Below are positions 18,493 to 42,190 of a stretch of DNA of 64,000 bases, in pieces. The stretch lies in assembly GCA_027858835.1 (NCBI GenBank), contig JAQIBY010000143.1, positions 4,332 through 68,331 of the forward strand. Direction: 5' to 3'. The DNA comes from Bacteroidales bacterium. Lineage in GTDB: Bacteria > Bacteroidota > Bacteroidia > Bacteroidales > ML635J-15. The first letter of the stretch is position 1, and the number at the start of each line of letters is the position of its first letter. The notes under the pieces are model-generated. The model searched no databases. It was not told where the DNA came from and saw only the letters and a list, made by a program, of their open reading frames with translations. The position numbers were made by a program, and so were the translations under genes.

Positions 18493-18747
18493 AATATTTT
18501 GTATTTTGTTTGTTTGTATCTTTGATGCGAATAATTTACGAAGGTTTAAATGAGGTGGAAAGTTTGATCCACTGGTGAGCTGCCTGTCCGACTGCTGGCT
18601 GAGACAAGGGTTAGAAGTTTCCGTCTTCACTGCGTTACGCCGGACAAGTTCAGTTGGAGGTTAGTTGGTTTTTTTTATTTGTAATTTGAATATTGGGATT
18701 TGAAATTTATTTGTTATTTGTTATTTGAGATTTGAGATTTATAAACT

Positions 18748-23666: not shown

Positions 23667-23773
23667 TTAAAGACAGATCAATTAAGTATATTTCAACAAT
23701 AATTTAGCAATAAATTCATTCTGAAATTCATAAAATAGTGTATCTTTCCATTTTATTAGGAGCTTGTCATTTT

Positions 23774-25030
23774 ATGAAACGCATTATATACATTCTCGCC
23801 GTAATTTCCATTGTACTGATTAGTAACTCAGGGCAGGCACAAACTTACCGGGACACAATCAAAACTTACGAAGAAATCCTACAGCGGTATGAATCTAAAA
23901 CCGATTCTGTCCGTAGCTTAATGGGAAACATGAAATTAAAATACATTCAAAGTACAATTGAATCTGTCGGATTACCCATCGGTGCAATACAAGAAGAAAT
24001 AACAAGCCATCCGGGACTCCGAATTTCTTACAATGAAAATCATGAAATTGCAAACTGGGTTGCAAGTATGATTTTGCCGGATATTAAAACAGGGAATTTC
24101 GGTCGTACAAATGACTTTCGTGTTGACACAAGCATTTCTACCGGATCAACCGAAGAAGCTGACTTCTTTTTAAAAACACGCATTGAAGCGGATAAATATG
24201 AATACGACGGCTACGGATTCGACAGAGGTCACCTCGCTCCTTCTGCAGATTATCGCTGGTCACAAACCGCTATGTCTGCAACTTACTTTTATTCAAACAT
24301 GACACCTCAGCATCCCGATTTTAATCGTGGGAAATGGGCAAGTGTCGAAGCATTTCTTAGAGCATATATTATGGAAACCGAAACGGAGTTAATCATTTAT
24401 ACCGGACCGATTTTGTATGATAACATGCCACAAGTAAAACGCAGTATAAATGAAATGAGTTTGCCTGACGAACATTACAAAATTGCGATTGACATGGAAA
24501 ACGAGCGGGTCATTACTTTCTTAATGCCCAATCAACGCATAGACAATCCAATTGAAGATTATGTGGTGACAATTGATTCCATCGAGAAAAAAACAGGTTT
24601 AGATTTTTTAACTCAAATACCGGAAAATAAAGAAACAGAGCTGGAATCACAAAACAACCCAGAGCCTTGGTTTAGCGGAAAACAAAAAGGAGATCGCATG
24701 CCCTTGACAAAGTCCGAATTGCCGCCAAAAGCATACAATACCCGCGATGCGAGGGCATTTATGGGAGCAAAGCGTAAAGCCACTATTTGCGGAACAGTTG
24801 TCTCAACACATAAATCTCAAAAAGGAAATACCTTTATCAATTTGGACAAATCCTTCCCGAATCAAGTTTTTTCAATCACTATTTGGGCATCAGATCATGT
24901 AAACTTTCCATTCAAACCGGCAGAATTCCTTATGGATAAAAAAATCTGTGTAACAGGGAAAGTCACAGAATATAATGGAACTCCATCGCTTTACCTGAGC
25001 AATGAAAATAACATTGAAATTTTAGATTAA
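23774..25030 (+). CDS. Secreted DNA/RNA non-specific endonuclease (NUC family) with C-terminal OB-fold-like domain
   Basis: Signal peptide MKRIIYILAVISIVLISNSGQA (start chosen at 23774). Active-site FDRGHLAPSADY ... SNMTPQ. The C-terminal roughly 90 aa (ICGTVVSTHKSQKGNTFINL...KICVTGKVTEYNGTPSL) resembles an OB-fold nucleic-acid-binding module. Confidence 0.8.
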   Translation: MKRIIYILAVISIVLISNSGQAQTYRDTIKTYEEILQRYESKTDSVRSLMGNMKLKYIQSTIESVGLPIGAIQEEITSHPGLRISYNENHEIANWVASMILPDIKTGNFGRTNDFRVDTSISTGSTEEADFFLKTRIEADKYEYDGYGFDRGHLAPSADYRWSQTAMSATYFYSNMTPQHPDFNRGKWASVEAFLRAYIMETETELIIYTGPILYDNMPQVKRSINEMSLPDEHYKIAIDMENERVITFLMPNQRIDNPIEDYVVTIDSIEKKTGLDFLTQIPENKETELESQNNPEPWFSGKQKGDRMPLTKSELPPKAYNTRDARAFMGAKRKATICGTVVSTHKSQKGNTFINLDKSFPNQVFSITIWASDHVNFPFKPAEFLMDKKICVTGKVTEYNGTPSLYLSNENNIEILD

Positions 25031-33992: not shown

Positions 33993-35447
33993 ATGGGTAA
34001 AGAAGAACAACAAAATAAAGTCCTGCAGGAAGTAACCAAAAACGAATATAAGTACGGGTTTTCTACGGAAATGGAGCAGGACAGCATTGCCAAAGGACTC
34101 AGTGAAGACGTGGTGAGAATGATTTCTGCTAAAAAAAATGAGCCCGAATGGATGCTGGACTTTAGATTGAAAGCTTATCGAAAATGGCTTACAATGAAAA
34201 TGCCCGAATGGGCGCACCTGAAAATCCCGAAAATTGATTATCAAGACATCATTTTTTATTCTGCACCAAAGAAAAAACTACAACTCGACTCCCTCGATGA
34301 TATCGATCCGGACATCCGAAAAACCTTTGATAAATTGGGAATTCCGCTGGACGAGCAAAAACAACTTTCCGGCGTAGCAGTGGATGCTGTAATGGATTCT
34401 GTCTCGGTGAAAACCACATTTCAGGAAAGCCTTGCCGAGAAAGGCATTATCTTTTGCGCATTTTCTGAGGCAGTGCAAAAACACCCTGATTTGGTAAAAA
34501 AATACATGGGATCTGTCGTTCCTTACGGAGATAATTATTTTGCAGCATTGAACTCTGCAGTCTTTAGTGATGGGTCATTTTGTTATATCCCGAAAGGCGT
34601 GCGTTCCCCAATGGAGTTGTCAACTTATTTTCGCATTAATGCCGCAAATACCGGACAGTTTGAGCGCACACTTATTGTAGCTGAAGAAGGATCTTTTGTG
34701 AGTTATCTCGAAGGATGTACGGCTCCGCAACGCGATGAGAATCAACTGCATGCAGCAATCGTTGAGATTGTGATTGAAAAAGATGCGGAAGTCAAATACT
34801 CAACAGTTCAAAACTGGTATCCGGGGGATAAAAACGGAAAAGGCGGAATATATAATTTCGTAACAAAACGTGGAATTTGCAAAGGAGACAACTCAAAACT
34901 CAGTTGGGCACAGGTTGAAACCGGATCGGCAATAACCTGGAAATATCCAAGCACGATTTTATTGGGAAACCACTCAGTTTCTGAGTTTTATTCTGTTGCT
35001 GTGACAAATAATTACCAACAAGCAGATACCGGCTCAAAAATGATACATCTCGGCAAAAACACCCGAAGTACCATTATTTCCAAAGGAATTTCTGCCGGAT
35101 TTAGCGAAAACTCCTATCGGGGATTGGTGAAAGTTGCAAAAAATGCCGATAATGCCAGAAATTTCTCGCAATGCGATTCCCTTTTGCTTGGCGATAAATG
35201 CGGAGCGCATACTTTCCCCTATATTCAGGCTGATAACAATTCCGCAATATTGGAACACGAGGCTACCACATCAAAAATCAGTGAAGACCAGATTTTTTAT
35301 TGCAAACAACGCGGAATTTCCGAAGAAGATGCCATTGGTCTGATTGTCAACGGATATACCAAAGAGGTGATTAATAAATTACCGATGGAATTTGCGGTTG
35401 AGGCACAAAAATTATTGCAAATAACCCTTGAAGGCTCAGTCGGATAA
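33993..35447 (+). CDS. sufB: Fe-S cluster assembly protein SufB
   Basis: 484 aa. EYKYGF, the beta-helix core and the [26 protein letters not shown]-terminus are typical of SufB. Confidence 0.93.
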
Positions 35448-35448
35448 A

Positions 35449-36024
35449 ATGGTGCAGAAAAACACATATCAGGAATTGAAAACCTTTTTTGTTGAAGGGC
35501 AATTTTGCACGCAGGATATTGTCGAGATGACAGAAAATCCTGAGCTTATTCCTGATTTGATGAAATTGGCATTATCAAACGATGAACCTGCAGGTTGGAG
35601 AGCTGCATGGGCATTGTCGCATGCAATGAAGCATTCCATTAATCTGTTGATTCCGTATCTTCCGGAGATTGCAGATGCCTTACCGGAAATCCGTAAAGAC
35701 GGACACATCAGGGAACTGCTGAAATTTTTCAGAGATGTAAAATTGGAGCAAATCCCGGAAAGCCTTCACGGACAATTGTTCGATTATTGTTTTACACTTT
35801 TTGAAAACAATAATGTACAACCTGGAACGCGAAGTAATGCCTTACAGATTTTATTAAAAATTGCGGAAAAAGAACCCCTCTTAATTGGAGAAATTAAAGC
35901 CGCTTTTGAAATGATTAGCCCTTTCCTGAGTAAAGGAATTCGGTACTCATGTCAACGGCGAATTAATGAAATATCACTACAAACAATTAATACCCATAAA
36001 ACGAGATACAATGTTGAAAATTAA
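35449..36024 (+). CDS. Hypothetical helical-repeat (HEAT/ARM-like) protein inserted between sufB and sufC
   Basis: The ATG at 35449 lies 2 nt after the sufB stop and the ORF overlaps the sufC start by 14 nt. The sequence is helix-rich (PELIPDLMKLALSNDEPAGWRAAWALSH...). No family recognised. Confidence 0.45.
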   Translation: MVQKNTYQELKTFFVEGQFCTQDIVEMTENPELIPDLMKLALSNDEPAGWRAAWALSHAMKHSINLLIPYLPEIADALPEIRKDGHIRELLKFFRDVKLEQIPESLHGQLFDYCFTLFENNNVQPGTRSNALQILLKIAEKEPLLIGEIKAAFEMISPFLSKGIRYSCQRRINEISLQTINTHKTRYNVEN

Positions 36025-36760
36025 TAATTTACACGCAGAAATTGAAGGTAAGAAAATCCTTAACGGAATCAATCTCGAAGTGAAACCCGGAGAAACCCAC
36101 GCAATTATGGGTCCCAACGGTTCCGGAAAATCAACCTTAGCATCGGTACTTGCCGGTCGTGATGTATTTAATGTCACCAAGGGAGATGTGACTTTCCTCG
36201 GAAGAAACTTGCTGGAAATGGAACCGGAAGACAGAGCACGCGAAGGGCTTTTTCTCAGTTTCCAATACCCGGTAGAAATTCCCGGAGTAAGTATGATGAG
36301 TTTCATGCGTACTGCCGTGAATCAAGTCAGAGAGCATCGTGGGCTCGAGGTCTTGTCGTCTGCTGCTTTTCTGAAATTTATGCGGGAACGTAAAGAATTG
36401 GTTGAAATTGATTCAAAATTAACGAATCGTTCTGTCAACGAAGGTTTTTCGGGAGGAGAAAAGAAGAAAAACGAAATTTTTCAGATGGCCATGCTGGAAC
36501 CTAGACTTTCGATTTTGGATGAAACCGATTCAGGGCTGGATATCGATGCCTTGCGTATCGTTGCCAATGGCGTTAATGCATTAAAAACATCTGAAACATC
36601 AAATATTGTAATTACCCATTATCAGCGACTGCTTGATTTTATTGTGCCGGACTTTGTACATGTCTTGTACGAAGGTCAAATTGTGAAATCTGGAGGCCGT
36701 GAATTAGCCCTTCAACTCGAAGAAAAAGGCTATGATTGGATTAAAAATGAACTTGCCTAA
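36011..36760 (+). CDS. sufC: Fe-S cluster assembly ATPase SufC
   Basis: Start at MLKINNLHAEIEGKKIL. GPNGSGKST, FSGGEKKKNEI and ILDETDSGLD motifs. Confidence 0.93.
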   Translation: MLKINNLHAEIEGKKILNGINLEVKPGETHAIMGPNGSGKSTLASVLAGRDVFNVTKGDVTFLGRNLLEMEPEDRAREGLFLSFQYPVEIPGVSMMSFMRTAVNQVREHRGLEVLSSAAFLKFMRERKELVEIDSKLTNRSVNEGFSGGEKKKNEIFQMAMLEPRLSILDETDSGLDIDALRIVANGVNALKTSETSNIVITHYQRLLDFIVPDFVHVLYEGQIVKSGGRELALQLEEKGYDWIKNELA

Positions 36761-36771
36761 AGCAAATCATT

Positions 36772-38115
36772 ATGCAAATAGAAAATTATTTAAAAACATA
36801 TCAATCCATACTCGATGCTTCTAATGGAAGTATCCCTGATTTCATCCGTAAAGAAAGGGATGCAGCGAAAGAAGAAATTATCGAAAACGGATTACCCGAC
36901 AGAGCGGATGAGCGATATCGCTATCTCGATTTAAAACCGGTTTTTGATGATACCGAATATAAGCGAATCACCTCTGAACCTGCTGTGACCGATTCATTGG
37001 GCTCATTTTTTCAGTGTGAGGTGCAAGGCATGGATACTGATTTAATTTTATTGTCAAACGGTTGGTATCATGAATCTACATTGCCAAAAGACAGTAAAGT
37101 TGTGGTTTGTAGCATGCGGGAAGCTTTTCATAAACATCCTGAATTAGTGCAGAAGCACTTTAATCAATATCTCAAAAAAGCAAAAGACGGCTGGACAGAA
37201 TTGAACACCATGCTTGCCCAAGACGGCGTATTTATTTATGTTCCAGATAATTATATTACCGAAAAAGCCATTCAAATCGTGAATTTAACACACGGTTTCA
37301 GTGAAAAAGAAATTTTTCAACGGAATTTGATTGTCATCGGGAAAAATGCAAAACTACAACTCTTAATTTGTGATCATACCTTAAACAAGGCGAAAAATGT
37401 CAATCATCTTGGGACAGAGGTGTTTATAGATGAAAATGCAGATTTCCAAATGTACGACTTACAGAATGAACCTGACATTTCGAATGTGTTTTCACATCTT
37501 GCTTTTCATCAGGAAGCTTATTCCAGATTAACATCTCTTGCTTTCAGCTTACATGGCGGAACTATTCGCAATAATCTTTATGTGACCATGAACGGACAGG
37601 GCGCAGAAAGCAATGTATATGGTTTGGTTCTGTCTGACAGGCAGCAGCGAATGGATAATTTTACATTTATCGATCATGCGGTGCCAAATTGTGTCAGCAA
37701 TGAGTTTTACAAAGGCATTTTGGATGAACAGTCTCGTGGAGCGTTTAGCGGTCGCATCTTAGTGCGAAAAGACGCGCAAAATACCAATGCATTCCAGACA
37801 AATAACAATATTTGTTTAACCGATGAAGCCAAAATACGAACCAAACCACAATTGGAGATTTATGCTGACGACGTAAAATGTTCGCATGGTGCTACGGTGG
37901 GACAATTGGATGAAGAAGCAATGTTTTATTTACGTACTCGCGGCATTGATAAGCACGAAGCTCGTTTTATGATGCTGTTTGCTTTTGCCAATGACATTGT
38001 TCGGAAAATTGAAATTGAACCACTCCGGGAACGCGTTGCAGACTTGGTTTCAAAACGCCTTCGAGGCGAATTAGTTGCCTGTGAGCACTGTTTGCTGAAT
38101 TGTGAAAGTAATTAG
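36772..38115 (+). CDS. sufD: Fe-S cluster assembly protein SufD
   Basis: 447 aa. KPQLEIYADDVKCSHGATVGQLDEEAMFYLRTRGI is the conserved SufD C-terminal block. Confidence 0.9.
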   Translation: MQIENYLKTYQSILDASNGSIPDFIRKERDAAKEEIIENGLPDRADERYRYLDLKPVFDDTEYKRITSEPAVTDSLGSFFQCEVQGMDTDLILLSNGWYHESTLPKDSKVVVCSMREAFHKHPELVQKHFNQYLKKAKDGWTELNTMLAQDGVFIYVPDNYITEKAIQIVNLTHGFSEKEIFQRNLIVIGKNAKLQLLICDHTLNKAKNVNHLGTEVFIDENADFQMYDLQNEPDISNVFSHLAFHQEAYSRLTSLAFSLHGGTIRNNLYVTMNGQGAESNVYGLVLSDRQQRMDNFTFIDHAVPNCVSNEFYKGILDEQSRGAFSGRILVRKDAQNTNAFQTNNNICLTDEAKIRTKPQLEIYADDVKCSHGATVGQLDEEAMFYLRTRGIDKHEARFMMLFAFANDIVRKIEIEPLRERVADLVSKRLRGELVACEHCLLNCESN

Positions 38116-38159
38116 TTATAAGCAGCTTAAATACTGCAGAGTGAAGTTGTGATTTATGT

Positions 38160-38660
38160 ATTCAATCTCTTTGCGTAATAATTAAAAAAGCTATACCGCA
38201 GAGAACCGCTAAGAAGGCGCAGAGGACCGCTAAGGAAAATAATAGCTCTATACTGGAAAAATCTTTGCGAAACTTTGCTCCTTTGCGAAACTTTGCGGTA
38301 CAATTTAAAAATGCTGTACCGCAGAGAACCGCCAAGAAGTCGCAGAGGACCGCTAAGGAAAATGATAGCACTATACTGGAAAATCCTTTGCGTAACTTTG
38401 CTCTTTTGCGAAACTTTGCGGTACAATTTAAAAATGCTGTACCGCAGAGAACCGCTAAGAAGTCGCAGAGGACCGCTAAGGAAAATAATAGCTCTATACT
38501 GGAAAAATCTTAGCGAAACTTTGCTCCTTTGCGAAACTTTGCGGTACAATTTAAAAATGCTATACCGCAGAGAACCGCTAAGTAGTCGCAGAGGAAAACA
38601 ATAGCATCTATGTAATGAACTTTTTCGTAACTTTACTCTTACGAGCCTTTGCTTACAACA
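38160..38660 (+). repeat. 123-bp-period tandem hairpin repeat array, left block (3 full and 2 degenerate units)
   Basis: Units start at 38190, 38313, 38436 and 38559, exactly 123 bp apart. Each junction carries CTTTGCGGTACA-N12-TGTACCGCAGAG. Confidence 0.9.
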
Positions 38661-38690
38661 AAAAACCGTTAAGAATTAAAAGATAGCCTT

Positions 38691-39068
38691 ATGAACGAAA
38701 ATGAATTATCAAAAATTATTATCGGATGTGCAATAGACGTACATAAACAATTAGGTCCTGGACTTCTCGAATCTGCATATCAGGAATGCTTAGCTTATGA
38801 ATTAAAGGAACATGGGCTTTATGTTAGAAAAGAAGTTGGTATGCCTATAATCTATAAAGAAGTAAAACTTGACCATGGTTATCGGATAGACTTACTCGTT
38901 GAAAATAAAGTTGTAATTGAGACAAAGTGTGTTGAGTACATAACCGATGTTCATGAAGCACAGTTGTTAACCTATTTAAAATTAGGAGATTACAGGCTAG
39001 GCTTGATACTGAATTTTCATGTTAATACATTAACCAAAGGTATTAGGCGTATGGTAAATAATTTATAA
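38691..39068 (+). CDS. GxxExxY protein (PD-(D/E)XK-like, TIGR04256/PF13366-type)
   Basis: 125 aa. GPGLLESAYQECLAYEL contains the GxxExxY motif. RIDLLVENKVVIETK resembles a D...(E)xK nuclease core. Size is typical of the family. Confidence 0.75.
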   Translation: MNENELSKIIIGCAIDVHKQLGPGLLESAYQECLAYELKEHGLYVRKEVGMPIIYKEVKLDHGYRIDLLVENKVVIETKCVEYITDVHEAQLLTYLKLGDYRLGLILNFHVNTLTKGIRRMVNNL

Positions 39069-39094
39069 TTAAGCATCGCGTCACAACTATAAAA

Positions 39095-39436
39095 GCTATA
39101 CTGCAGAGAAAAAAGTGATAAATTATTCCATATTTCCTTTGCGTAACTTTGCGGTACAATTTAAAAATGCTGTACCGCAGAGAACCGCTAAGGAAGCGCA
39201 GAGGACCGCTAAGGAAAATGATAGCACTATACTGGAAAATTCTTTGTGTAACTTTGCTCCTTTGCGAAACTTTGCGGTACAATTTAAAAAGCTATACCGC
39301 AGAGAACCGCTAAATAAGCGCAGAGAACCGCAGAGGAAAACAATAGCACTATACTGGAAAATCTTAGCGAAACTTTGCTCCTTTGCGAAACTTTGCGGTA
39401 CAATTTAAAAATGCTGTACAGCAGAGAACCGCTAAT
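39095..39436 (+). repeat. Same tandem hairpin repeat array, right block (1 degenerate, 2 full and 1 partial unit)
   Basis: Units start at 39095, 39169, 39291 and 39413 (122-bp spacing between the last three starts), with the same hairpin and sub-repeats as the left block. Confidence 0.9.
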
Positions 39437-39475
39437 GTCGATTAAACATCCCAGCTTGAAACTTGTTATCCATAC

Positions 39476-39964
39476 ATGGAAAATCTTAAAATACCACATC
39501 GGATTTTACTTTTGCATTACGGAAAATCATCCGCTTTTGCAGGGAAAAACATCAAACTTCGAAATGCATTAGCAGAGGCAGTCATTCACGAGGCAAATCT
39601 CATGCATAAAATTCGGATTGATGAATCGGAAATCATTCATGCCGGCACGAAACATACAAGCGGTCACAGCATTATCGATCAGGTTGCAGATCAAATTTCA
39701 ATTGCCCCCGGAAAATCAGTGGGGCATTGGATAAAACAATTAGCTGCGAATGATACCATTGCTTTGCATGTTACAGAAAACTTGATTAATAATCAATTGT
39801 TAAAAGCACACAAAAACAAAGGCTTGTTCCGTAAGAAACCGACAACATACAGTCTGAACGGCAAAAACGACAGTCAGCTAGTATCAGATTATTTAAAGGA
39901 ATCTGCAAAATCGGATGCCCGAAGTACAATAAGTCTGGCTATTTTGACAAAACATGAAATTTGA
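39476..39964 (+). CDS. Hypothetical protein (weak GPP34/GOLPH3-like resemblance)
   Basis: 162 aa. The pattern HRILLLHYGKS...ALAEAVIHEANL...STISLAILTKHEI loosely recalls the GPP34 family. This was not verified. Confidence 0.3.
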   Translation: MENLKIPHRILLLHYGKSSAFAGKNIKLRNALAEAVIHEANLMHKIRIDESEIIHAGTKHTSGHSIIDQVADQISIAPGKSVGHWIKQLAANDTIALHVTENLINNQLLKAHKNKGLFRKKPTTYSLNGKNDSQLVSDYLKESAKSDARSTISLAILTKHEI

Positions 39965-40051: not shown

Positions 40052-41131
40052 TTACTGCTTTACAATTTTTCGAGTGATAATAGAGCCGGTACTTAAGTTT
40101 GAAATGCGTATCATGTATATACCCGACTGAAATGCAGAAACATCCAACGATATATCAGTATTAGTAGTTTTTTGTTTCATTAATGATTTTCCACAATAAT
40201 CAAACAAAACAATTTGATATCCTTTGGAAGATTTAATCGGAATTTCCAGATTTAAAACATCACTTACCGGATTAGGGTTAATCTTAGCATCCTGCAAATT
40301 TGATTGTACGCTTGCATTTGGTGGATCTCCCCAAACATACTCCACAAATTCCGGATTATCAACATAAGGATTTCTATTGTACTGCCAGTCGTAAATCGCA
40401 TTGTTTCGGTTCTGCTCTTTTTCACTCACAGGATCTTCCTCATGCCATGTCATTAGCATTGCCAAAGCACCGGGCTTTAGCTGTGAACCATCAACCATAT
40501 CATTACTATTGAAACTACCGTCTTCGCCATAATAGCGTGTTGCCATATAGAAATAAATGCGTGCAAAATCACCTTTATACTCATCAATGGGCTCAAAAAC
40601 GGTTTCATTTGTCCATGACAAAGCTGAGCTTCCTTTTTTACTTCCGTTTGTCGATGTCCAACTTGCACTGCTTACTTCCCCATAAACAAAATTACTCCGT
40701 TGTCCATTCGTATATCCATCGGAAGGAACCAATTGCACTAAATCTGAATACATCGGAGATTCATCATTAAACCAGGATTTTGGCCAGGAATGTTCACGGT
40801 TGTAGCAGGAGCCTTCGCCTGAATAATTTCCACACTGATCACTCCCAAATGTGTAATAATAAGATGGAGTTCCACCGGGGACATCACTATACATATCCCA
40901 TACTAAATTGCTGTTATCCGGTCTTGGGTCGGTATCTTCAAATGCTGACCACAAATCTTCATAACTCAATGAATTATGATTGTCGATGATATTGTGCAGC
41001 GCTTGCTGTAAGCTCTCTCCATATATTCCTTCTGCACTGTCGTAATATCCTGCCGGGATTTGTGCGGTGGCAAGAATGGCAGACAAAATGCCTGCCATTG
41101 TAAAAACAAATCGTTTGTAAAAAATGAACAT
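40052..41131 (-). CDS. Secreted endonuclease I family nuclease with T9SS C-terminal sorting domain
   Basis: Signal peptide. YNREHSWPKSWF and DLVQLVPSDGYTNGQRSN are endonuclease I-like. The last roughly 80 aa (NPNPVSDVLNLEI...GIYMIRISNLSTGSIITRKIVKQ) look like a type A T9SS sorting domain. Confidence 0.75.
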   Translation of the reverse strand: MFIFYKRFVFTMAGILSAILATAQIPAGYYDSAEGIYGESLQQALHNIIDNHNSLSYEDLWSAFEDTDPRPDNSNLVWDMYSDVPGGTPSYYYTFGSDQCGNYSGEGSCYNREHSWPKSWFNDESPMYSDLVQLVPSDGYTNGQRSNFVYGEVSSASWTSTNGSKKGSSALSWTNETVFEPIDEYKGDFARIYFYMATRYYGEDGSFNSNDMVDGSQLKPGALAMLMTWHEEDPVSEKEQNRNNAIYDWQYNRNPYVDNPEFVEYVWGDPPNASVQSNLQDAKINPNPVSDVLNLEIPIKSSKGYQIVLFDYCGKSLMKQKTTNTDISLDVSAFQSGIYMIRISNLSTGSIITRKIVKQ

Positions 41132-41134
41132 ATA

Positions 41135-42190
41135 TTATTCTTTAATTTCTTTAATCACGTAAATGTAAGCTGGGAAGTGGTCAGAATACCCACCCATATA
41201 TGTGTCCCCAACATAAGTTCTCCATGGATAACCTTTAAACCGACCTTCGCGCTGCGTGAGTTCCGGGTTATTATACACATGAGCTGCGTAATATTTATAG
41301 GTTTCTGGCTCTCCCAAAGCTAAGCTCGGGCTGATAATAACCTGATCGAAAAGATTCCATTTGTCGCGATAAGCACCTGAGCCAACGCCATCACGAAAAA
41401 GCTGAGCAAAAGGATTAAACAAATCGCCCTCTTTCAATTCTGATTTTTTGCGTTTTGCACGCAAATTATCCTCTAATGATTCGTTTACCGGATCGTCATT
41501 AAAGTCACCCATGACAACAATTTTTGCATCCTTATCCAAGGCCATTAGACTATCTACAATTTCTCGGGTTTTATCACCGGCAGCATTCCGTTTCGGACGA
41601 CTGGCTTTTTCTCCACCACTACGTGACGGCCAGTGATTTACAATAAAATACATGGGCTCTCCGTCAAATTTCCCGGAAACCAATAAATGATCTCTGGTTT
41701 TATCTTTCTTGTCAAAATCAAAATTCAAAGGAATTGATTTGTAATCACTTACTTCAAACACAGATTTGCGATACATAAATGCGACATCAACGCCGCGTTC
41801 ATCCGGTCCGTCAACATGAACATAGTCATATCCATATTTTTTCAAATCCGTTTTGTTAATTAAATCCTCAATTACAGTGGCATTTTCAACCTCAGAAATT
41901 CCGACAACAGCAGGGGGAAGTTTTGATAAGTCTGCACCAATTTTCAAAATTACTGAAGATAATCTTTCCAATTTTTCTTCGTAAATCTTGGTATTATAGT
42001 TTTTATCTCCTTCGGGAGTAAATTCATCATTAAGAAAAATGTCAGGATCATTAATTGTATCAAACAAGTTTTCAAGGTTGTAAAAAGCAATCGTACTAAC
42101 TTTATATTGCTTTTCCTGAGCATTCACATTAAATGTGAAAAAGATTGCGAGCAATGCAATTGCAATAGTGTATAAACGTTTCATAAACAA
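41135..42190 (-). CDS. Secreted endonuclease/exonuclease/phosphatase (EEP) family protein
   Basis: Signal peptide. IAFYNLENLFD near the N-terminus and GGYSDHFP near the C-terminus are EEP catalytic motifs. Confidence 0.75.
   Translation of the reverse strand: MFMKRLYTIAIALLAIFFTFNVNAQEKQYKVSTIAFYNLENLFDTINDPDIFLNDEFTPEGDKNYNTKIYEEKLERLSSVILKIGADLSKLPPAVVGISEVENATVIEDLINKTDLKKYGYDYVHVDGPDERGVDVAFMYRKSVFEVSDYKSIPLNFDFDKKDKTRDHLLVSGKFDGEPMYFIVNHWPSRSGGEKASRPKRNAAGDKTREIVDSLMALDKDAKIVVMGDFNDDPVNESLEDNLRAKRKKSELKEGDLFNPFAQLFRDGVGSGAYRDKWNLFDQVIISPSLALGEPETYKYYAAHVYNNPELTQREGRFKGYPWRTYVGDTYMGGYSDHFPAYIYVIKEIKE

Follow-up and report, generated by a model that had tools for sequence, protein, structure and literature searches.

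Directly behind sufD in a 64-kb stretch of a Bacteroidales contig (JAQIBY010000143.1; this whole stretch of 64,000 nt is called the window below), a small gene of the GxxExxY family lies within an array of palindromic repeats, and the question is what the gene and the repeats have to do with each other. The repeat region starts 16 nt 3' of the sufD stop codon and ends at about 39440, and the gene (38691..39068, + strand) encodes 125 amino acids (aa). The reading favoured here, to which we give slightly less than an even chance, is that the locus is one copy of a widespread nuclease-plus-palindrome element, in which a GxxExxY gene is framed by inverted arms of heptamers. The association between gene and repeats, the compensatory complementarity of the arms, the constraint on the arms, the purifying selection on the gene and the persistence at fixed sites are directly supported.

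The open reading frame (ORF) at 38691-39068 matched PF13366 over profile positions 2-117 of 117 (145.1 bits against a cut-off of 22, E 1.5e-42) and TIGR04256 over positions 1-116 of 116 (150.4 bits against a cut-off of 35, E 2.4e-44), which bears out its assignment to GxxExxY / PD-(D/E)XK in a first-pass annotation of the window; its family matches were to PD-(D/E)XK only. The GxxExxY signature is found as G24, E27 and Y30 in GPGLLESAY, three residues that were invariant in 40 close homologs and nearly so in 86 diverse ones. The nuclease signature residues D67, E77-x-K79 and Q91xxxY95 are, together with G24xxE27xxY30, invariant or nearly invariant in the same two sets, and D..(D/E)xK combined with QxxxY is characteristic of the RecB/Cas4/lambda-exonuclease branch of the PD-(D/E)XK superfamily. 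The AlphaFold2 (AF2) model used here was built from the diverse alignment, since an earlier one from the 40 close homologs gave a predicted local distance difference test score (pLDDT) of 64 and meaningless Foldseek matches. In the model (mean pLDDT 95.1, predicted template-modelling score 0.88), D67, E77 and K79 are placed on strands E58-70 and E74-79, and its best Foldseek matches were Cas4 (4r5q, 4ic1; probability 0.99-1.00, query TM-score 0.49-0.57), LHK-Exo and lambda exonuclease, with tRNA-splicing, homing and restriction endonucleases ranking lower. Searches of PDB sequences with the single protein and with a profile found no relative, and PADLOC returned a weak Cas4-like match (E ~1.5e-3). 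According to the model the product is a protein of PD-(D/E)XK fold, with its alpha-beta-beta-beta-alpha-beta core, and it is predicted to be an active nuclease. The family to which it belongs comprises 21,004 clusters (50% identity) at E <=0.001 and 6,794 at E <=1e-10, and is often multi-copy. Some of its representatives, 266-295 aa long, carry two GxxExxY domains in tandem.

The repeats around the gene follow a definite design. An intact unit is a 111-nt imperfect palindrome consisting of a left arm with four spaced heptamers (CGCAGAG, CGCTAAG, CGCAGAG, CGCTAAG), a 27-nt loop and a right arm with four CTTTGC(G) heptamers; units begin with T(A/G)TACCGCAGAG, and neighbouring units are linked via a 12-nt A/T-rich junction. 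Tandem Repeats Finder (TRF) reported an upstream array at 38182-38595 (period 123 bp, 3.4 copies, 93% matches, score 737) and a downstream array at 39135-39435 (period 122 bp, 2.5 copies, 90% matches), so the 123-bp-period array announced in the first-pass annotation is real, and its unit starts equal those found by regular expression (38192, 38315, 38438, 38561, 39097, 39171, 39293 and 39415) shifted by 2 nt. The sub-repeat CGCAGAGRACCGCTAAG was found in 12 copies against 0.04 expected, all of them within 38197-39436, and the rest of the window (outside 38100-39500) contained no motif cluster and no comparable tandem repeat. Long ORFs across the array were rightly regarded as artefacts of stop-free repeats, their Pfam matches being sub-threshold noise only.

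The structure stressed in that annotation was a hairpin at the unit junctions, CTTTGCGGTACA-N12-TGTACCGCAGAG. It does occur, with five copies on the + strand at <=1 mismatch against 0 expected from shuffles and a sixth copy with an 11-nt spacer. It is present because palindromic units are placed in tandem, and it is a by-product rather than the key structure: a fold centred on the unit (-42.6 kcal/mol) and one centred on the junction (-41.8 kcal/mol) are equally good, and relatives with a single hairpin have the unit-centred form only. The conserved structure is the whole-unit hairpin of heptamer arms. The covariance models of Rfam 15 identified no family in the array, the sole match being 11.8-bit noise outside it. 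Other readings of the repeats were also dropped, namely a CRISPR array with its unique spacers (units adjoin directly here, and those of one array share the loop between their arms), intrinsic terminators with a GC-rich stem and a following T-run (none was detected on the + strand from 37900 to 39700, including the interval between sufD and the array) and integron attC sites.

At the sufD locus, relatives have either both the gene and the repeats or neither. The closest GxxExxY proteins, 88-92% identical, are likewise encoded directly 3' of sufD within related arrays, and five contigs of a relative terminate within the downstream array, which would follow if the repeats break assemblies. One relative, L036 (SufD 89% identical), spans the whole locus, which runs from sufD through a terminator, ~5.5 units, the gene and ~6 units to the ortholog of the gene at 39476-39964. 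Since there are ~3.4 units upstream and 2.5 downstream of the gene in the window, ~5.5 and 6 in L036 and ~2 upstream in L001, the copy number varies among loci. No GxxExxY gene follows sufD in L059 (SufD 86% identical), where an insertion sequence (IS) element (DDE_Tnp_1) stands at the position of the module, nor in L060 (81%) or L061 (77%); all three have only a plain Rho-independent terminator after sufD and lack any sign of the repeats over 39 kb. In sum, four lineages have the gene after sufD and three more distant ones lack it, but the downstream synteny differs. A metagenome scan with SufD yielded 2 loci. The idea that the module occupies the place of sufS/sufE did not hold: sufS was found after sufD neither in L059-L061 nor in the module-bearing relatives, and among the ten window ORFs of 361-444 aa none is an aminotransferase. 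As relatives without the module also lack sufS, its absence is unrelated to the module. The first-pass annotation had listed relatives lacking sufS at this position among the findings that would count against its idea; this refutes only its side-argument on sufS and not the module.

The association was then followed over 16 independent GxxExxY loci. They comprise the window lineage, a Chitinophagaceae contig (two copies), Brumimicrobium, a Bacteroidales metagenome-assembled genome (MAG), a Pyrinomonadaceae (Acidobacteriota) MAG, Tenuifilaceae, two other Bacteroidota contexts, Gemmatirosa (Gemmatimonadota), Bacteroides finegoldii, Bernardetia, Sphingomonas, Persicobacter, Treponema, a Fusobacteria isolate and Prevotella nigrescens. 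The flanks were repeat-rich at all 16, which, together with relatives that have neither gene nor repeats, upholds the earlier proposal that the two belong together. In the 2 x 250-nt flanks the most frequent 7-mer occurred at least five times at 11 of the 16 loci, compared with 0.6% of 957 control windows. The top 7-mer was of the class CRCRRAG (or its complement CTYYGYG) in 11/16 loci, and in a twelfth locus, L037, the heptamer core is offset by one base. Arms bracket the ORF directly in L009a/b, L022, L063, L064, L065, L070 and L071. The arrangement is fabD-[CGCGAAG x3]-gene-[CTTCGCG x3]-fabG in Sphingomonas, radA-[CACAGAG/CGCAGAG/CACGGAG]-gene-[CTCTGTG x3]-FAD protein in B. finegoldii, ade-[CACAGAG x2]-gene-[CTCTGTG x3]-manC in Bernardetia, and [CGCAAAG-type x4]-gene-[CTTTGCG x4] at the Acidobacteriota locus. 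The Chitinophagaceae contig (L009) carries two 99%-identical copies whose common segment begins exactly at the left arm, and here the gene with a 29-nt leader stands in place of the 5-nt loop of the neighbouring gene-less units. When the upstream flank was aligned locally with the complement of the downstream flank, the result was clear only for L009a and not significant for the window lineage; the claim that the gene sits in the loop thus rests on L009, L022, L063-L065, L070 and L071, not on the window. Embedding in repeats as such seems, from the loci compared, to hold for the whole GxxExxY family. A wide spread is independently suggested by N-terminal extensions of database representatives, which carry peptides resembling a translated heptamer array (EGAKDGKERRK, TEGTEDTE, HRDTEGHGEE).

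The two arms change in concert. With the nested hairpin specified by hand, 86% of the cells paired when 28 units from 10 loci were aligned, and the share fell to 34-52% once one side was slid by 1-3 columns. A check for covariation among units across genomes, which had been suggested earlier, turned out positive: 11 pairs were changed on both sides, a number reached in 0/500 shuffles. RNAalifold found only 6 pairs in the unit alignment because the sub-repeats pair in several registers. Across loci, heptamer and complement change in a compensatory way, as seen in the pairs CGCAAAG/CTTTGCG, CACAAAG/CTTTGTG, CACAGAG/CTCTGTG, CGCAGAG/CTCTGCG and CGCGAAG/CTTCGCG. At the fabD-fabG site, L065 and L071 carry CGCGAAG x3 and CTTCGCG x3 arms. 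In L070, at the same site, CGCAGAG-CGCGGAG-CGCAGAG stands upstream and its exact mirror, CTCTGCG-CTCCGCG-CTCTGCG, ~400 nt downstream. Between L070 and L065 FabD is 95% and FabG 97% identical, the GxxExxY protein 67%, and the arms are new, and this contrast indicates that the gene and both arms were exchanged as one block. The heptamer variant also tracks the protein clade: the proteins of the two CACAAAG loci are mutually closest (81% identical, 123 aa, HTAQV), and CGC-type loci have 125 aa and HEAQL in common.

Both parts of the locus are constrained. Arm identity is 87-91% between the window and L036, L001 and L008 and 85% between the window and the Chitinophagaceae units, and loop identity is 33-52%, the same as at 4-fold degenerate SufD sites (44-56%); the arms are held constant to a degree that the loops, which drift at the neutral rate, are not. 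Among orthologs at the sufD locus the GxxExxY gene has a dN/dS of 0.07-0.20 and is under purifying selection. In the same genome pairs its dS (0.25-0.82) reaches about half the value for the neighbouring sufD (0.98-1.69); lineage exchange, codon constraint or small-sample noise are possible causes.

Hairpins of this design also occur without the gene. The 24-nt right-arm core TTTGCGNNNCTTTGCTCCTTTGCG (window 38264-38287) was found as an exact match in 25 stretches of species-representative genomes, where by our estimate ~0.3 would be expected by chance, and these belong to Bacteroidota, Planctomycetota, Acidobacteriota, Chlamydiota, Verrucomicrobiota and Proteobacteria. Many of the matches lie within 100-130-nt hairpins of the same design, mostly intergenic; a few look coding or may be due to chance (L030, in a signal peptide, and possibly L010, L026 and L029). 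Most of the 25 stretches have no GxxExxY ORF within 8 kb. In an 8.7-kb Chitinophagaceae stretch two repeat loci have the gene and at least two do not, and Prevotella nigrescens has six places of its local unit and one gene. On two megabase replicons of Gemmatirosa, the local 83-nt hairpin gave at least 40 and at least 39 BLAST places (palindromes may count on both strands), with 3 and 0 GxxExxY matches, respectively. A gene flanked by inverted copies of a dispersed gene-less repeat was thus seen in L009 and Gemmatirosa, and the window repeat at one locus only. Two observations on these loci may be added. In Gemmatirosa plasmid 1 a GxxExxY copy of 374 nt (L062 1501-1874) lies between two perfect hairpins and contains in-frame stops, and is thus a probable pseudogene or a sequencing frameshift. 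In three Chitinophagaceae stretches (L015, L019, L020), past a gene ending in ...MFKKKK*, a CTTTGCG run adjoins a non-complementary CACGAATT / ACGAATTA run, so several families of short-motif arrays may share intergenic spots. By analogy, the numbers of hairpins and genes are the population structure of a repeat family with few enzyme genes, as known for REPINs (hairpins formed by doublets of repetitive extragenic palindromic, REP, sequences) and RAYTs (REP-associated tyrosine transposases). The likeness to REP/RAYT drawn in the first-pass annotation is still the best at hand, as gene-less hairpins are dispersed and outnumber genes in the Chitinophagaceae contig and in Gemmatirosa.

How such an element might work can be proposed as follows. 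The cassette would consist of arm, gene and arm, with 3-4 heptamers in each arm (CRCRRAG on one side, CTYYGYG on the other); gene-less arm-loop-arm hairpins would be its non-autonomous derivatives, and in the window lineage such hairpins would have multiplied into tandem arrays that flank the gene on either side. The nuclease may recognise the heptamer arms, probably as a hairpin of single-stranded DNA (ssDNA) or as a cruciform. Cutting, followed by repair or recombination, would then copy and homogenise the arms and occasionally the whole cassette. Copying and homogenising of this kind would keep the arms conserved even as the loops drift, give rise to solo hairpins and arrays, and let a cassette be replaced en bloc. 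We infer that the GxxExxY protein acts on the arms, and on DNA rather than on RNA. A broader proposition, which we hold more hesitantly than the reading of the locus itself, is that GxxExxY genes and heptamer arms make up a cross-phylum minimal element (~450 bp; one RecB/Cas4-like nuclease of 125 aa with arrays of recognition sites as termini) that seeds and maintains hairpin populations, and would be a second, enzymatically unrelated counterpart of REPIN-RAYT.

Several observations weigh against this proposal. The sample of 16 loci is small and was partly found via the repeat itself. The activity of the protein and its binding to the arms are predictions from sequence and model, and the Foldseek matches are all remote (best E 2.6e-3). 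Members of the family that are ~38% identical have other repeats (GGATT/AATCC; AGATTTG/CAAATCT in 120-nt tandem units; an 11-bp inverted repeat), so the heptamer rule covers a large subfamily and not the whole family. In the window itself the repeat is not dispersed, as the remaining 62.6 kb contained no solo copies. A pure RNA-stem model equally predicts matching arms at both ends. The gene persists at one site in Sphingomonas (fabD-fabG, at a FabD identity of 88%) and in the sufD lineage (dS ~1), and neither L009 nor L065 shows an evident target-site duplication at the ends of its cassette. Both of the Sphingomonas fabD-fabG sites looked at were occupied, and a clean empty site was not found. 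Among 72,556 plasmid records eight had the family, all of them large non-mobilizable replicons, and the family was absent from phages. The persistence at fixed sites, the scarcity on plasmids and phages and the lack of a target-site duplication suggest a resident, possibly domesticated system rather than an active jumper. Domestication has likewise been argued for RAYTs.

Among the other explanations, the one that survives best is a cassette at the RNA level like an rRNA intervening sequence (IVS), in which the arms would pair in the operon mRNA as a ~24-bp stem and loop out the ORF. The stem would be an RNase III processing site or a clamp insulating the host operon, and the arrays would be structured RNA co-transcribed with suf. 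We regard it as unlikely on balance. In 12 of 13 contexts the gene points the same way as its upstream neighbour, and it is closely packed into operons such as fabD-fabG, radA-FAD and ade-manC, so that an RNA stem between the arms stays a serious rival; it also gains from arms that abut the start and stop codons, from the perfect 24-bp complement in L070 and from the lack of a terminator between sufD and the array. The 12/13 co-orientation, however, is not clearly above the ~70% baseline for neighbours (P ~0.06 by our estimate), and L011 is antisense to both of its neighbours. A strict co-orientation of the gene with its neighbours was dropped on the evidence of L011, L012 and L066. An RNA cassette would moreover leave the dispersed gene-less hairpins unexplained, including those on a replicon without the gene, and no Rfam match was found.

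The strand on which the repeats fold bears on the same question. The single window unit folds better as + strand RNA (-42.6 kcal/mol, z -6.3) than as - strand RNA (-37.5 kcal/mol), and in L063 and L065 the sense strand has G-U wherever the pairing is not Watson-Crick, both as an RNA stem would have it. On the other side, L009 has its asymmetric arms the other way round with respect to the gene, and A-C mismatches occur on the sense strand in the arms that bracket the gene in L009 and L022. The first-pass annotation had observed that the odd pair of the hairpin is G-T on the plus strand and would be A-C on the minus strand, and had concluded that the fold favours a plus-strand RNA or ssDNA, the sense in which suf is read. 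Taken literally the observation is correct, but the asymmetry is weak (2-3 G-U against 0-2 A-C per intact unit of the window) and mixed elsewhere. The conclusion is not supported, given the flipped arms in L009 and folds with DNA parameters, which show no strand preference (-19.7 vs -18.4 kcal/mol for the unit, the strands being equal).

Less likely still is that the hairpins are independent REP/MITE-like repeats (MITE, miniature inverted-repeat transposable element) spread by another enzyme or by replication slippage, with the GxxExxY genes as passengers that do not act on them. Such a picture agrees with the solo state of most of the 25 core-match stretches, which lack a GxxExxY ORF within 8 kb, with the Chitinophagaceae CTTTGCG run that adjoins the unrelated CACGAATT run, and with a family that is very large and often multi-copy. 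A passenger would not be expected to share its clade structure with the heptamer variant, to be replaced together with both arms at one site, to have arms immediately at its ORF ends in many phyla, or to be missing along with the repeats from relatives at the sufD locus.

It is improbable that an ordinary housekeeping-type gene is merely flanked by generic operon punctuation, that is, by terminators, insulators or protein-binding sites: the long persistence at fixed sites and the purifying selection would fit, but the units are not intrinsic terminators, relatives without the module carry a plain terminator after sufD, and unrelated loci of different phyla show the same architecture again, with arms that changed in a compensatory way. 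A pair resembling type III toxin-antitoxin systems, in which processed repeat RNAs neutralise a small nuclease (ToxIN logic), is suggested by a tandem structured array directly 5' of a small nuclease gene, by RNases among PD-(D/E)XK folds and by tRNA-splicing endonucleases among the Foldseek matches, and is very improbable given that arrays lie on both sides of the gene, the repeats are palindromic, many loci have a single hairpin or bracketing arms only, solo hairpins are dispersed, no terminator separates repeats and gene, and PADLOC yields weak Cas4-like matches only.

Returning to the nuclease-plus-palindrome element, its likeness to known systems can be specified. In common with REPIN/RAYT it has a single small enzyme gene between inverted palindromic repeats that are also found gene-less elsewhere, repeats at gene ends and intergenic spots with tandem arrays (of the type of bacterial interspersed mosaic elements, BIME) possible, long persistence at a site under purifying selection, and more hairpins than genes (Gemmatirosa). 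It differs in the enzyme, which is PD-(D/E)XK (RecB/Cas4-like) in GxxExxY and an HUH/Y1 (IS200/IS605 TnpA-like) transposase in RAYT, and in the repeat, since a GxxExxY arm consists of 3-4 heptamers and a REP is a single sequence of 20-40 nt with a GTAG or CGTC tag. REPs are defined by a conserved 5' GTAG or CGTC tetranucleotide (PMC3733652), and no conserved tag of either kind was found in the window units. In addition, the GxxExxY family is often multi-copy and occurs across many phyla, and its repeat is not dispersed in the window.

Homing endonuclease genes, including the PD-(D/E)XK enzyme I-Ssp6803I, are similar in that a small nuclease gene lies between conserved host genes, is present or absent among relatives and is replaced as a cassette en bloc, as at fabD-fabG; unlike them, GxxExxY genes have no intron or intein context, are bordered by long composite inverted repeats and reside at a site for very long. 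IS elements and MITEs share the inverted terminal repeats around one ORF and the gene-less arm-loop-arm derivatives, but the GxxExxY element lacks a DDE, serine, tyrosine or HUH transposase and has a minimal form of ~450 bp. ORF-bearing 23S rRNA IVSs likewise place their ORF inside the loop of a long, imperfect inverted-repeat stem, and it is co-transcribed with the host gene. Their ORFs encode four-helix-bundle PF05635 proteins, and the long IVS stem is cleaved by RNase III. The host of the GxxExxY gene, by contrast, is an mRNA operon and not rRNA, and the ORF family is a different one. Cas4/RecB nucleases give the best structural matches of the AF2 model and have the D..ExK..QxxxY motif in common with it, but the GxxExxY protein of 125 aa lacks the Fe-S cluster cysteines, there is no CRISPR context in the window, and the sequence similarity is marginal. 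Each of the likenesses to REPIN/RAYT, homing genes, IS/MITE and IVS fails in at least one defining feature, and by analogy the GxxExxY element would work most like REPIN/RAYT.

In the full text of the open-access literature nothing was found that links GxxExxY/PF13366 to flanking repeats; the family is mentioned there in a superfamily catalogue (function 'Unknown'), in a passing remark on gene neighbourhood and in genome annotations only. As an enzyme-associated palindromic repeat system, it would apparently be new in both its enzyme family and the architecture of its repeats. The co-varying heptamer frame provides a testable hypothesis for the function of GxxExxY, as the cognate substrate could be read beside each gene. 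If the reading is true, a second independent enzyme-plus-palindrome system would exist besides REPIN/RAYT, and a protein family of >20,000 clusters (50% identity) would be accounted for. Many of the intergenic hairpin arrays that break metagenome assemblies and small insertions in conserved operons such as fabD-fabG would be explained as well, and small nucleases that differ naturally in their 7-nt specificity would become available as a set.

In the window, the module follows the sufB-X-sufC-sufD cluster, in which sufB (33993-35447) and sufC (35966-36760) were identified by NCBIfam equivalog models and sufD (36772..38115, +; TIGR01981, E 1.7e-76) is the last gene and upstream neighbour, outside the module. 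The repeat units, which are given without strand, begin with a degenerate short first unit (ATACTGCAGAG ... CTCTTTGCGTAATAAT) and its junction at 38131..38191, recognised in the sequence. Three intact 111-nt palindromic units follow at 38192..38548 (38192-38302, 38315-38425 and 38438-38548; TRF, and nhmmer with E ~1e-37 each). The degenerate fourth unit (38561..38658; nhmmer E 7.4e-12) probably contains the leader of the GxxExxY gene, and a degenerate unit like it is kept directly 5' of the gene in L001, L007 and L036. Immediately past the stop codon of the gene, at 39069..39096, there is a right-arm remnant (CATCGCGTCACAAC, cf. CTTTGCGGTACAAT) with a junction, identified by comparison with L036 and L007, in which TTTTGCGCTACAAT / CCCTTTGCGTTACAAT comes right after this stop codon. 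It is followed by a short unit of one left and two right heptamers (39097..39158; sequence and regular expression), two intact units at 39171..39402 (39171-39281 and 39293-39402; TRF; nhmmer E 6.8e-38 and 5.2e-34) and a truncated last unit with the start of the left arm only (39415..39436; sequence and TRF row 39135-39488), past which a weak unit-like similarity extends to ~39488, over the start codon of the next gene.

This next gene, 3' of the array (39476-39964, +), encodes a GPP34/GOLPH3-family protein (PF05719, E 2.9e-08), and its start codon lies within loop-like sequence of the repeat unit (TRF row 39135-39488); it adjoins the module in L036 also and is absent from L059. Between sufB and sufC, a 198-aa ORF without a Pfam match (35428-36024, +) was found, and ORFs of 183-208 aa, also without a Pfam match, occupy the same position in L001, L059 and L060, so far as sequence comparison goes a conserved suf operon member in this lineage. 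In L059, a relative of 3.94 Mb, a type III CRISPR-Cas module (Cas10, RAMP proteins) lies 5' of sufB. Elsewhere in the window there are an Endonuclease_NS gene (Pfam; 23738-25030) and two adjacent ORFs (40052-41131 and 41135-42190) that by eye resemble a secreted nuclease and an exo/endonuclease-phosphatase, none of them with an evident link to the module, and, just 5' of a Na+/H+ exchanger gene, an unrelated 32-nt tandem repeat of 2.2 copies (TTTATTTGTAATTTGATATTTGAGATTTGAAA; 18674-18742).

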